64,000 nucleotides of DNA. Source: Chlamydiia bacterium (lineage in GTDB: Bacteria > Chlamydiota > Chlamydiia > Chlamydiales > GCA-2402025). The notes under the pieces were generated by a model. It searched no databases, was not told the origin of the DNA, and was given only the letters and a program-made list of their open reading frames with translations. The translations under genes and the position numbers were made by a program. Below, piece after piece: positions 38,144-41,320 of the stretch. Where the stretch lies: contig JAJACS010000003.1 in assembly GCA_022601395.1 (NCBI GenBank), positions 43,702 to 107,701 of the forward strand, in the 5' to 3' direction. How positions within the stretch are numbered: position 1 is the stretch's first letter; every line of letters begins with the position of its first letter.

Positions 38144-38237
38144 AATACTCCCATTATAAGAGAAAACCTAGGTTTGACCTAGTCAAAAGTTCAGGTCCTT
38201 TGATACAACCCCCTCTCATAAAAAAGAAACTCATCAT
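38144..38237. repeat. direct repeat copy A (~94 bp, decayed promoter-like copy)
   Basis: It aligns with 41228-41320. The first ~60 nt differ at about 7 positions by eye (AATACTCCC[A/T]TTATAAGAGAAAACCTA[G/T]GTTTGA[C/T]CTAGTCAAAAGTTC...). It contains the palindromes AAACCTAGGTTT (38164-38175) and TTTGACCTAGTCAAA (38173-38187). Confidence 0.85.
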
Positions 38238-38326
38238 AATTTAATAGATGAACTGAGTCTATTTCGGTCAAGCGACTTATAAAACCCCTATATCTCTCTT
38301 TATGAAACCTGCTCAAAAGTCACTAT

Positions 38327-39112
38327 TTAAGGAGATGAAGGAAAATATCCATACTTCCTAAAAAGTGGTTTTACTTTTCTTAAATAGGCATTAATAACAC
38401 TATAAATTTTGTTTGGTGGGCTATAGGAATCTTTTTGAATATGAGACCCGTGGAATCCAGAAATAGATAGAGATTCACTAAAATCAGGAAATTGACTTAT
38501 ATATTTATTAATGTTACTCTTTTTAAAACAAGTAATAATTAATTCCCTGTCATTAGGGTCGATAGTTATAAAAAGATGATCTTCTATAAAGTCCAGAAAA
38601 CCCTCTAAGTTGTTGTTAAACTCTTCAAACCTTACTAGTAGCGCATTGTCTCCATTTCTTATTCTTTCTTCGTAAAAATTCAAATAGTTACACTGTTGAT
38701 CAATTGCTCCTTTAACAAAGGAGTTTAAGTTCGTTTTTTTATTCAAGCGAATTCGGTAACGAGAAATTGTAGCATCCACAGGATTTCTGATAGGAATAAT
38801 GTAGAGAATGTTTTGCTTTTTTTTAAGAAGATCCAAATCGCTAAATAAGTGAGTTCTAACTACTATAGAATCAGACAGCAATACATTATGTGCTCTTGAA
38901 AGTTGTGCCGTACTCTCAAACAAAAACCTAAATACATTATAAGTAATCATGCTACCTGTTCTTGGTGCAGAAATAACTACTACTTGATCATGATCTTTAA
39001 GTCTATATTGTTTTGTTCTTTGTAAGCATATAGTTTCAGGATTAAGAACTTCATTGCTCATAATAAAGGTTGAAAGTATAAGCTGTAAGATAAAAAGTAC
39101 TTTCATATTCAT
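38327..39112 (-). CDS. sulfotransferase-like protein with N-terminal signal/anchor
   Basis: 261 aa. N-terminal hydrophobic segment. VVISAPRTGSMITYN resembles the PAPS 5'-phosphosulfate-binding loop (PKxGTT/PRSGST). Its start ATG overlaps the upstream stop (ATGA at 39109-39112). Confidence 0.45.
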   Translation of the reverse strand: MNMKVLFILQLILSTFIMSNEVLNPETICLQRTKQYRLKDHDQVVVISAPRTGSMITYNVFRFLFESTAQLSRAHNVLLSDSIVVRTHLFSDLDLLKKKQNILYIIPIRNPVDATISRYRIRLNKKTNLNSFVKGAIDQQCNYLNFYEERIRNGDNALLVRFEEFNNNLEGFLDFIEDHLFITIDPNDRELIITCFKKSNINKYISQFPDFSESLSISGFHGSHIQKDSYSPPNKIYSVINAYLRKVKPLFRKYGYFPSSP

Positions 39113-39924
39113 ATTTCTAAAGGGTTCTTTTTAACCCTTACATACTCCTCTTGAACTCTTTTTAAAAAATCTAGTTTCAAATCTAAACCTTTACAAAAAG
39201 TTGCATGAAACATCACTATGCTATCCGGAAGTTCAATTTTGGAATCAGCATGATATAGGTAAAGACTATTCGGATTCTTCTGATTTTTTCTTAAAACAAT
39301 TCGTCCATTTGCAAACTCTTCCAAAGGAAGAAGACCCCAGTCTATTTTCTCTAATTTTAGTATTTTCAAAGCCTTTCTTATTGCGACTTGATCATCAATA
39401 CATATTCCTTTCTCAAGCAAGTCATAAGCAGTACGTATTAACTTTAGCGTTTTTAGGTTTCCTCTCATCACAAAAAAACCAGCACATATTTTATAAGCAG
39501 CTGATTTCTGGGTTACGAATCCTTGCTGAGCTACGAAATCCCTTTCTCCGAGACACTGTAAGGCTTTTGGAATAATTGAATCAAAAAAAATAATATCTAT
39601 GTCTGAAAAGAAAAAAACTTGATTATTCCAATTCTCTCGTACAGCTTGTTCCAACAGCTCTAGTTTATTTAACATAACCTTTTCCCAACCCTTGGCGTGA
39701 ATTTCTCCACTAGGGCAATGATCTGGGTATACTTTAGCAATAATCTCGAAATTATCTTTTATGCTAGGCTTGAAACTTTCTTCATATAATCTCTTGAAAC
39801 TGGGAGTGTACATACAGTAGAGCTTAAAGCTCTTTTGATTATTCAAAAAAACTTCAGAAGCCTGAAAAATATTTGGAAAAGCAAGTAATACAAGTACAAG
39901 TTTAGACAAAAGCGAATGCTTCAT
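39109..39924 (-). CDS. nucleotide-diphospho-sugar glycosyltransferase-like protein with N-terminal anchor
   Basis: ATG at 39924 follows GAGG by 5 nt; the track ORF begins at a TTG at 39945. Hydrophobic N-terminus LLSKLVLVLLAFPNIF. DxD-type FFSDIDIIFFD. Confidence 0.45.
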   Translation of the reverse strand: MKHSLLSKLVLVLLAFPNIFQASEVFLNNQKSFKLYCMYTPSFKRLYEESFKPSIKDNFEIIAKVYPDHCPSGEIHAKGWEKVMLNKLELLEQAVRENWNNQVFFFSDIDIIFFDSIIPKALQCLGERDFVAQQGFVTQKSAAYKICAGFFVMRGNLKTLKLIRTAYDLLEKGICIDDQVAIRKALKILKLEKIDWGLLPLEEFANGRIVLRKNQKNPNSLYLYHADSKIELPDSIVMFHATFCKGLDLKLDFLKRVQEEYVRVKKNPLEI

Positions 39925-39937
39925 AAGTGCCTCATGT

Positions 39938-41200
39938 TTAATCAATTGGAGTCAAACTAATTTTCGTCAACCGACAAACACAGTAAGGGAATTTCCTTGT
40001 GTGATTTTTATATACTTCAGAATGCTTTTCTTTAGTAACAAATACCAACTTTACTTTTGGTGTAGTAATCGATTGAAGAGGTATAGTTCCTTGATAGTCT
40101 ACAGATATGTACTTTTCATTGGGTTTAAAAACATTTTTAGAGACTATTAGTTTTCTAGAGTTATTTAAAGTCATGGACAATCTCGGAAGTTCATCCATCC
40201 TAAAATTTCGATTTTCTTTTAGTTGAATTTCCTTATTATCTACGAATAATTTGACACCTGAAAAGCACTCAGGAAAAATACCTTCAAATCGAATAGAATA
40301 ATCTTTCTTTATAAGAGGAAAGTATATTACAGCTTCCCTACCTCTGATGCTCCTACAGCAACACTCTTTTTGAGCGAAATTAATAAAACTTCTTTCGCCC
40401 CATCCATATCCATCCACTGGCGATAGAAAAGTAAATTGGTACTCTCCTTCTTTTATTGTAGGTTTTAGTGGAAAAGATGTTTTAAGAGGGTGTAAGCTTT
40501 CACTTCTATTTTTAAAATGTACCTTAGCCCACTCATACAATCTTGTATCCAAACTATTTAAACCTATAATTGTTTCTAGCTGAGTAGAGTTAGGGGTGAA
40601 TTTTTTATGCTTATGAAGAACTGCACTCTTCTTCATATCGATATCTAAACCAAGTCTTTTTAATAAAAAATTAGCTTCTTCAACATAGTTGTCAAAAAAA
40701 ATTACACAATCAAACTTTAGAAGTTCTTCTTTAGCACTTTCAAGGAGAGCTTCTCCCTCTAAATTAAAGTCTGTAGCAAAGTATTTACAGAAAGCATTTG
40801 AATATAACGTATTTTTTCCCAAATCAACGCTCTCCAAAAGCTCATTTATCTTCATGTTTGTGTTTAATTGCACATGATTTACATTCGAATAAAATCTTTG
40901 TTGTGGGTCTCTAAGAATGGTAATTTTAAAACTTGTATCAAACTTTGGGTCAAGTCTTCTAAGTACTGATACAGGTTGATGTCCCGAAACTAGCTTAAAT
41001 CCACTTAAGTCTATTCTTTGACGTGGAGCAAATCTAAAGTTTGTCATAGAAATAATATGAAATACTTCACTCTCATGTAACTGCATATTCAGCACATTAA
41101 ATAAAGATCCCCCACCCGTTTTAGGAACATGGACAAAGTATATGTTTGCATTTAAATGCAATAAAACAAATACAGGAAAATACAATAGGAATCTTTTCAT
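39938..41200 (-). CDS. sulfotransferase family-2-like protein with N-terminal anchor and extra C-terminal domain
   Basis: 420 aa. FLLYFPVFVLLHL anchor followed directly by YFVHVPKTGGGSLFNVL, which matches the hIPKTGGTS PSB loop of Sulfotransfer_2-type enzymes. The ~170-aa C-terminal region is unassigned. Confidence 0.5.
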   Translation of the reverse strand: MKRFLLYFPVFVLLHLNANIYFVHVPKTGGGSLFNVLNMQLHESEVFHIISMTNFRFAPRQRIDLSGFKLVSGHQPVSVLRRLDPKFDTSFKITILRDPQQRFYSNVNHVQLNTNMKINELLESVDLGKNTLYSNAFCKYFATDFNLEGEALLESAKEELLKFDCVIFFDNYVEEANFLLKRLGLDIDMKKSAVLHKHKKFTPNSTQLETIIGLNSLDTRLYEWAKVHFKNRSESLHPLKTSFPLKPTIKEGEYQFTFLSPVDGYGWGERSFINFAQKECCCRSIRGREAVIYFPLIKKDYSIRFEGIFPECFSGVKLFVDNKEIQLKENRNFRMDELPRLSMTLNNSRKLIVSKNVFKPNEKYISVDYQGTIPLQSITTPKVKLVFVTKEKHSEVYKNHTRKFPYCVCRLTKISLTPID

Positions 41201-41227
41201 ATAAGACCTCTAATTTTATTGGGTTAT

Positions 41228-41320
41228 AATACTCCCTTTATAAGAGAAAACCTATGTTTGATCTAGTCAAAAGTTCGGATCTTTTGGTATAATACTCTAT
41301 CATAAAAAGGTCTTCATCAT
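41228..41320. repeat. direct repeat copy B (functional promoter/5' leader of the next gene)
   Basis: Homologous to 38144-38237. It contains the extended -10 box TGGTATAAT (41285-41293) and runs into the ATG at 41319. Confidence 0.85.

Follow-up and report, generated by a model that had tools for sequence, protein, structure and literature searches.

Direct Repeats of a Divergent Intergenic Spacer Flank an AT-Rich Sulfotransferase/Glycosyltransferase Operon in a Chlamydiia Bacterium

Introduction

Direct repeats on both sides of a DNA segment are known from several kinds of events, among them single-crossover (Campbell-type) integration, tandem or segmental duplication, integrase-mediated islands, integron cassettes, and the target-site duplications made by transposases. 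Here, we analyzed a block of three genes that lies between two imperfect direct repeats in a 64,000-nt stretch of a Chlamydiia bacterium genome (GenBank assembly GCA_022601395.1, contig JAJACS010000003.1, positions 43,702 to 107,701 of the forward strand). This stretch is called the window in the following, and all coordinates refer to it. The left repeat (copy A) is located next to a MepB-like gene, whereas the right repeat (copy B) separates the three-gene block, referred to as the cassette, from a gene for a P-loop nucleoside triphosphatase (NTPase).

In Campbell-type integration, the complete segment of homology, which may measure tens to thousands of bp, ends up as a direct repeat on either side of the insert, and no dedicated recombinase is involved. 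The same pattern is seen here, as direct repeats of one resident segment flank foreign DNA, with unique sequence between them. The repeats of such an integration may be imperfect when donor and recipient copies differ. However, the incoming molecule must already carry a repeat-like segment, for which no donor is known here, and with 82% identity and exact runs of at most 17 nt the two copies would be a poor RecA substrate, unless their divergence came later. Tandem or segmental duplication, of which the window contains an example at 49.3-53.8 kb, also duplicates control regions together with neighboring DNA and is followed by uneven divergence, but at the locus studied here unique foreign DNA, and not a duplicated gene, lies between the copies, and the duplication did not include gene fragments. 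Islands with attL/attR ends, which are often found at tRNA or transfer-messenger RNA (tmRNA) genes, share with this locus the direct repeats around a block of foreign composition, and the locus has a tmRNA gene at a distance of 3 kb. Unlike such islands, the locus lacks an integrase, its repeat does not consist of tRNA or tmRNA sequence, the copies are only 82% alike, and the block measures only 3 kb. By analogy, the locus may also be compared with integron cassettes and their attC sites, such as the ~120-bp VCR repeats of Vibrio superintegrons, where compact genes without an evident promoter are accompanied by repeats of similar size (~100 bp here) and would be expressed from a resident promoter. 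In contrast to these, the locus has no IntI, no attC-type hairpin, three genes per cassette, and two repeats, each of which equals a resident divergent promoter spacer. Transposases, finally, directly duplicate target DNA at both ends of the insert, but their duplications comprise 2-15 bp as against ~110 bp here, and the segment has neither a transposase nor terminal inverted repeats.

Results

Extent and Position of the Repeat

In a preliminary description, which was made from the letters of the window alone, ~94-bp imperfect direct repeats had been placed at 38144-38237 and 41228-41320. The two stretches align as claimed, and the similarity reaches further left, to 38127 and 41211. The repeat search of the window paired 38127-38224 with 41211-41308 over 98 nt without a gap, with 80 of 98 identical positions (82%) and a spacing of 3084. 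Local alignment of the two copies yielded a score of 62, compared to 8.0 ± 1.4 in shuffled sequences, whereby none of 2000 shuffles reached 62. The best conserved part is a core of 49 nt recognized by BLAST (38144-38192 and 41228-41276; 46/49 identical, 93.9%, E = 7e-16), and the longest exact run common to both copies has 17 nt. After the ungapped part, there is a single 1-nt indel in an A-run, from where the similarity continues through CATCAT up to 38237 and 41320, which in copy B is the position of the NTPase ATG. Outside the repeat, no residual similarity of the flanks was detected (p = 0.69 right, p = 0.12 left) and there were no decayed gene fragments. Both copies are spanned with identical sequence in an NCBI metagenome-assembled genome (MAG) contig, a Logan assembly, and an ENA assembly, which derive from several samples. 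Since independent assemblies agree across both copies, the repeat is not an assembly artefact. The whole window is also included in contig JAHZIS010119041.1 (GCA_022599615.1, "Chlamydiia bacterium" MAG, locus tags S4CHLAM37).

The MepB-like gene (37587-38120, minus strand; PF08877, 151 bits) has its ATG at 38120, and copy A (38127-38237) begins 6 nt upstream of it and ends at the 3' trailer of the cassette. The non-coding DNA upstream of MepB before the cassette consists of copy A and this trailer and nothing else. Copy B (41211-41320) is situated in the divergent spacer between cassette gene 1 (minus strand) and the NTPase gene (plus strand), where it takes up 110 of the 118 nt separating the two starts at 41200 and 41319. 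It begins 10 nt upstream of the cassette gene 1 start, and these 10 nt between the ATG at 41200 and copy B (41201-41210, minus strand) form a leader with GAGG that does not belong to the repeat. The NTPase gene encodes an AAA_28 P-loop protein (41319-41855, plus strand), and its start codon is confirmed because orthologues keep the start ATG-CGN. An ABC-F ATPase gene sits 3' of the NTPase gene. As copies A and B each lie upstream of a minus-strand start codon, both are 5' regions of genes, a point that the preliminary description, which considered the plus strand only, had missed. With ~110 nt, the repeated unit corresponds to the complete non-coding region that separates two divergent genes, MepB on the minus strand and NTPase on the plus strand, and one copy of it is present on each side of the 2.97-kb segment 38238-41210, which comprises the 10-nt leader with its Shine-Dalgarno sequence, the three genes, and an 89-nt trailer.

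Composition and Homologues of the Cassette

All cassette genes are encoded on the minus strand. Gene 1 (39938-41200) codes for a 420-aa Sulfotransfer_2-like protein with a VPKTGGGS motif and an uncharacterized C-terminal half, gene 2 (39109-39924) for a 271-aa nucleotide-diphospho-sugar transferase (PF03407, 37 bits), and gene 3 (38327-39112) for a 261-aa sulfotransferase-like protein (PF00685, 27.8 bits), which has a hydrophobic segment at its N-terminus and contains a PRTGS motif. Gene 2 overlaps or abuts the adjacent genes at both ends. The unique 3' trailer of 89 nt (38238-38326, minus strand) was read from the sequence, and a significant fold was not found in it (z = -0.09). The genes form a tightly packed sulfotransferase/glycosyltransferase/sulfotransferase operon that has no upstream non-coding DNA of its own and therefore no evident promoter of its own. 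The guanine-plus-cytosine (GC) content of the cassette genes amounts to 30.3% (gene 3), 31.8%, and 33.3%, compared to 38.4 ± 2.8% for the open reading frames (ORFs) of the window. These are the lowest values among the 57 window ORFs, whereby one of them is tied with one other ORF, and the GC trough matches the bracketed interval exactly.

For the 420-aa protein, there are 13 homologues only among 5.8 billion proteins. Homologues of all three cassette proteins are adjacent in an unrelated contig (L013, 34% GC), with protein identities of 48%, 62% (gene 2), and 34%. There, the trio is part of a larger glycan-modification locus with sulfotransferases, a GT10 fucosyltransferase, a GH130 protein, and a methyltransferase, and flanking repeats were not found around it. 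As the trio also occurs in this unrelated genomic setting, it represents a transferable functional module. A PDB sequence search with the three cassette proteins gave nothing useful. All three proteins start with a hydrophobic signal/anchor segment (MKRFLLYFPVFVLLHL..., MKHSLLSKLVLVLLAF..., MNMKVLFILQLILSTF...), and the enzymes would depend on 3'-phosphoadenosine-5'-phosphosulfate (PAPS) or nucleotide sugars as donor substrates. Such a combination is odd for a bacterium and recalls Golgi-type enzymes.

We also considered flanking repeats as a general trait of this sulfotransferase family, but rejected this idea, as no link to the repeat studied here was seen in L013 or in three further contigs with homologues (L014, L127, and L150). 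In L127, the sulfotransferase homologue is a tandem paralogue. In L014, a JGI contig, nested long palindromic repeats (7773-7808, 9272-9436, and 9469-9579) flank a 31%-identical homologue of the 420-aa sulfotransferase. Their arms of 36-49 nt are 86-94% complementary, and a further arm copy is present upstream of the gene. They are unrelated to the locus repeat and probably constitute genome-specific elements of the repetitive extragenic palindrome (REP) or miniature inverted-repeat transposable element (MITE) kind. In L150, a metagenomic contig of low ORF density, an element of 40-170 nt (…TTGTATATCGTATACAGCTTAAAAACAGAAAAAA…; 4004-4171, 6062-6133, 6267-6332, 6451-6557, 8281-8320, and 9704-9870) occurs up to six times, with spacings of ~0.2 to 3.4 kb, around a distant sulfotransferase homologue. 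The element upstream of this homologue is unrelated to the locus repeat, too.

Divergence of the Two Copies and Promoter-Like Motifs

The 18 mismatches of the ungapped 98 nt are distributed with 6 in the first 17 nt, 3 in the 49-nt core, and 9 in the last 32 nt, so that 3 mismatches in the core stand against 15 in the other 49 nt of the repeat. The earlier estimate of ~7 differences in the first ~60 nt was reproduced, with 7 counted in 38144-38203. The right-hand third, which faces the NTPase gene and contains an extended -10 box, is 72% identical. The GC content over the 98 nt is 34.7% in copy A (38127-38224) and 26.5% in copy B (41211-41308). Of the 18 differences, 11 have G or C in copy A and A or T in copy B, and 3 are opposite.

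The conserved core of copy A (38144-38192; partner 41228-41276) includes both palindromic motifs, a minus-strand TATAAT, and a plus-strand -35-like TAGTCA. The sequence AAACCTAGGTTT (38164-38175) is a perfect 12-nt palindrome in copy A, whereas TTTGAC-CTA-GTCAAA (TTGAC-CTA-GTCAA at 38174-38186) is a 6+3+6 inverted repeat. Each of the two has one mismatch in copy B. The preliminary description had named two palindromes that are perfect in copy A and imperfect in copy B, which agrees with these data except that the second is not a palindrome in the strict sense. The minus-strand TATAAT of copy A is located at 38155-38160 (reverse complement), where copy B reads TATAAA. On the plus strand of copy B, a promoter-like site TAGTCA-18 nt-TATAAT with a preceding TG (41264-41293) shows 10 of 12 consensus matches and ends 25 nt before the NTPase ATG. 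It is the joint-best sigma-70-like match within 37.5-42 kb, as a consensus match only. Its extended -10 box (TGGTATAAT, 41285-41293) and the NTPase ATG at 41319-41321 were verified in the sequence, and the same holds for the degraded counterpart of the box in copy A (TGATACAAC, 38201-38209) and for the altered ATG position, where copy A has CATCATAA and copy B has CATCATGC. In copy A only, there is a weak terminator-like hairpin on the minus strand (38168-38182), which consists of CTAGG-TCAAA-CCTAG followed by GTTTTCTCTT; two of the three core substitutions break its stem in copy B (p about 0.1 by chance). The sequence TAATTTAATAG (38237-38247), which is formed by the last base of copy A and the first bases of the trailer, matches the first 11 nt of the repeat at 9 of 11 positions, a resemblance that was observed post hoc.

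At both ends of the copy-B spacer, a 7-nt inverted repeat is present (AAGACCT at 41203-41209 and AGGTCTT at 41310-41316). Cassette gene 1 and the NTPase gene have near-identical ribosome-binding regions (GAGGTCTTAT-ATG and AAGGTCTTCATC-ATG), and the inverted repeat is probably just the AGGT Shine-Dalgarno core common to both genes. No Rfam match was obtained for either copy at E ≤ 5, and RNA-parameter single-strand folds of both copies on both strands were unremarkable (z = -0.9 to -1.25). These results give no indication of a structured RNA or riboswitch.

Copy Number and Search for a Mobile Element

As judged by pattern search, blastn-short, and an nhmmer profile run with its most sensitive setting, the 64-kb window and ~20 kb next to it contain no third copy of the repeat. 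When the 20-nt palindromic core was used as a search pattern, no match was obtained in 596 Gb of representative genomes, in JGI metagenomes, or in IMG/VR. Because not even the repeat's own two copies were found there, the host genome is absent from these three collections. As far as tested, the repeat does not appear to be a dispersed element, with two copies only in ~84 kb and none in the three public collections.

Integrases, resolvases, or transposases were detected neither among the precomputed Pfam hits of called genes within ±10 kb nor in the Pfam scan of the neighbors. The 3' end of the tmRNA has no further copy in the window, and the repeat overlaps no tRNA or tmRNA. A tmRNA-linked island was rejected, as no repeat of the tmRNA 3' end was found. 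There are no inverted repeats of at least 35 nt in the window and the cassette ends are not complementary. Three further kinds of elements do not fit the locus. For a transposon or insertion sequence with a target-site duplication, the repeat of 98-111 nt is far too long, as the preliminary description had already pointed out, and terminal inverted repeats and a transposase are missing. For an integron cassette with attC, there is no integrase nearby and no element-spanning stem in copy A, whereby this refers to RNA-parameter folds and DNA-parameter folding and R'/R'' core sites were not examined. For an integrase-mediated island with attL/attR, there is no recombinase gene and the repeat is not derived from a tRNA or tmRNA. 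The preliminary description had suggested that the cassette entered together with a duplication of the repeat and that the palindromes might be a recombination site. The first suggestion is consistent with the repeats bracketing a compositionally foreign three-gene block (30-33% GC), but the second one found no support, since there is no recombinase within ±10 kb and no significant fold.

Relatives and Strain Variants

With a strain variant set aside, the protein identity to the nearest homologue is 68% for NTPase and 65% for MepB, and neither homologue is in a matching context. In 80 genome loci around NTPase relatives, which were scanned for all 13 neighboring proteins, MepB was never found beside NTPase (0/80) and never within 8 kb. 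The gene upstream of NTPase differs in each of the family-level relatives (CT_504-like, Bro-N, major facilitator superfamily transporter, alpha/beta hydrolase, and SnoaL-like protein), and the upstream regions of the NTPase relatives do not resemble the repeat. Synteny is loose only, with genes for TetR and the flavin adenine dinucleotide (FAD) monooxygenase and for an aminoglycoside phosphotransferase (APH) a few kb from NTPase in two MAGs. Across the locus, four further assemblies of the organism show no difference, and the cassette is present in all of them. In a contig of a strain variant (L096, 1 nt different in 667), the 91 nt upstream of MepB are identical to copy A. An empty allele was seen neither among the other assemblies of the organism nor in the strain variant.

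Other Features of the Window

The tmRNA gene (34842-35220, plus strand) is located 3 kb upstream of the repeat/cassette locus and is followed at 35273-38120 by accessory-looking genes (APH-type kinase, Cass2/GyrI-like, 170-aa orphan, and MepB). Two independent assemblies break right at the tmRNA gene (end of L006 at 34842, start of L002 at 35192), a possible sign of strain heterogeneity at this site. A tandem segmental duplication of ~2.2 kb (49269-51498 versus 51474-53760, 72-92% identity) comprises a 559/512-aa orphan gene and its divergent upstream region. Within this duplication, a 98-nt stretch is 99% identical (51315-51412 versus 53586-53683) and represents a stranded copy of the 5' part of a 515-aa gene (53426-54973). 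The identity varies along the duplication in a way that suggests gene conversion or selection. In the 85-nt spacer of the divergent FAD monooxygenase and TetR genes, there is a perfect 15+1+15 palindrome (45250-45280, TAGCACTTGACCGAC-C-GTCGGTCAAGTGCTA), which probably serves as operator for TetR. The outer half-site of this palindrome, TAGCACT, is similar to that of the controlling inverted repeat of chaperone expression (CIRCE), with different spacing. A 36-nt unit (ATAATACGGCCATTTTGCCAGCTTTTTTGGCCGTAT) is present twice without any difference (63307-63342 and 63348-63383), with 41 nt from start to start. Each unit consists of a GGCC-stem hairpin and a subsequent T-run and looks like one half of a doubled terminator.

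Discussion

We favor, with an estimated probability of roughly 0.55, the explanation that the insertion of a foreign operon lacking an evident promoter went along with a duplication of the resident bidirectional control region. The ancestral arrangement would have been a MepB gene and an NTPase gene transcribed away from a common spacer. With the entry of the foreign operon, the whole spacer would have been duplicated, so that the incoming operon came to lie directly downstream of copy B on the minus strand, while MepB kept copy A and the NTPase gene retained the copy that abuts its ATG. Afterwards, the copies would have specialized, with most divergence in the NTPase-facing third including the extended -10 box. 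In copy A, this third has no plus-strand gene to serve and plausibly decayed. The 49-nt core, judged from its conservation, plausibly represents a retained shared promoter/operator that would place MepB, the new operon, and NTPase under common control.

Such a duplication could have come about by single-crossover (Campbell-type) integration of a circle with a repeat-like segment, by template switching during repair or replication or fill-in at staggered breaks, or by an earlier small tandem duplication, with the insertion then separating the two spacer copies. The last of these routes, or a microhomology-guided join, is hinted at by the 9/11 match directly after copy A (TAATTTAATAG). The duplication at 49.3-53.8 kb also carried a divergent intergenic region, together with a gene fragment, and thus such events happen in this genome. 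The locus most likely constitutes an ordinary footprint of operon insertion and not a new kind of mobile element. It is a known kind of event, which opens no new mechanism and settles no long-standing question.

Several points weigh against the insertion of a foreign operon into a duplicated resident spacer. The ancestral MepB-spacer-NTPase arrangement is a reconstruction, as there is no empty-site relative in the databases. It could also be that the AT-richer copy B came with the AT-rich cassette and is not the resident one. The divergence of 18% would imply that the event is old or that the donor copy had already diverged. Both ends of the repeat coincide with start codons, which is unexpected for random breakpoints. 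A canonical -35/-10 pair was not seen on the minus strand of either copy, where TTGACT and TATAAT are separated by 22 nt. In addition, promoter-like matches are not enriched in this AT-rich region (12 compared to 15.9 ± 4.4 in shuffles). The latter also bears on the view of copy B as a live promoter, which had been put forward in the preliminary description: its site is indeed a joint-best sigma-70-like site, but as a consensus match it is of a kind that shuffled sequence yields as well.

The preliminary description had further regarded copy B as the resident functional NTPase promoter and copy A as a functionless, decaying by-product of the insertion. This fits with the extended -10 box and the ATG, which copy B has preserved but which are degraded in copy A, and with the low identity of the right-hand third, where 9 of 32 nt are mismatched. 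However, copy A lies directly 5' of MepB, 6 nt from its ATG, so that it cannot be assumed to be idle, and its core is 94% identical to that of copy B, with the better palindromes. Moreover, neutral decay in an intergenic background of 33% GC predicts that the dead copy becomes AT-richer, whereas copy A is the GC-richer one (34.7% versus 26.5%). The term "decayed duplicate" is thus appropriate for the NTPase-facing third but not for the core or for copy A as the MepB 5' region, and we consider a functionless copy A unlikely. Another explanation, to which we would give low odds, is a rearrangement in situ. Here, the cassette would already have been located beside NTPase, its transcription would have started in the spacer and extended to MepB at the end of the unit, and a later duplication of the spacer would have provided MepB with a promoter of its own. 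Segmental duplications with intergenic DNA do occur in this genome, both copies are 5' of minus-strand genes, and the sequence that follows copy A is similar to the beginning of the repeat (9/11). On the other hand, a non-tandem 110-bp duplication that lands 3 kb away and 6 nt before a start codon requires more steps than an insertion with duplication, and the base composition makes the cassette and not MepB the newcomer.

It might also be that the repeat belongs to a dispersed family, either REP/MITE-like or a regulon operator in 5' regions, of which two members flank the cassette by chance and without any duplication linked to the insertion. The palindromic core resembles a protein-binding site, the search covered ~84 kb of a genome that is probably larger than 1 Mb, and in L014 a distant sulfotransferase homologue lies among genome-specific palindromic repeats. 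But a third copy is absent from the window and the ~20 kb adjoining it, terminal inverted repeats are missing, the ends of the repeat match the limits of one specific spacer, and the core pattern had zero matches in the three collections, from which the host genome is itself absent. Taking both sides, chance flanking by a dispersed family appears markedly improbable. Still less credible is a site for site-specific recombination (att/attC/dif/res-like), with a cassette that is mobile through a recombinase encoded elsewhere. Repeat-flanked gene blocks without promoters do resemble superintegron cassettes or res-flanked segments in their look, and the locus has direct repeats of ~100 bp with a palindromic core around compact genes without an evident promoter. 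Against this stand the lack of integrase, resolvase, and transposase domains within ±10 kb, a repeat without a tmRNA or tRNA origin, folds of z = -0.9 to -1.25, and the missing Rfam match. Furthermore, the copies are 82% alike with a longest exact run of 17 nt, the L013 trio has no flanking repeats, and all assemblies from several samples carry the cassette. A long shot, in our opinion, is an unrecognized cassette system of environmental chlamydiae with a recombinase in trans, in which a glycan-modifying block would enter and leave a divergent promoter spacer with the 49-nt core as the putative crossover region. If such a system existed, the resident promoter would be copied to drive the newcomer genes.

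If the insertion of a foreign operon with duplication of the resident control region is correct, the locus would be a natural example of how a promoterless, horizontally acquired operon gains expression in an obligate intracellular bacterium by means of a duplicated control region, and of how the copies of such a region specialize afterwards. It would also mark the entry of an unusual signal-anchored sulfotransferase/glycosyltransferase trio into a chlamydial genome.

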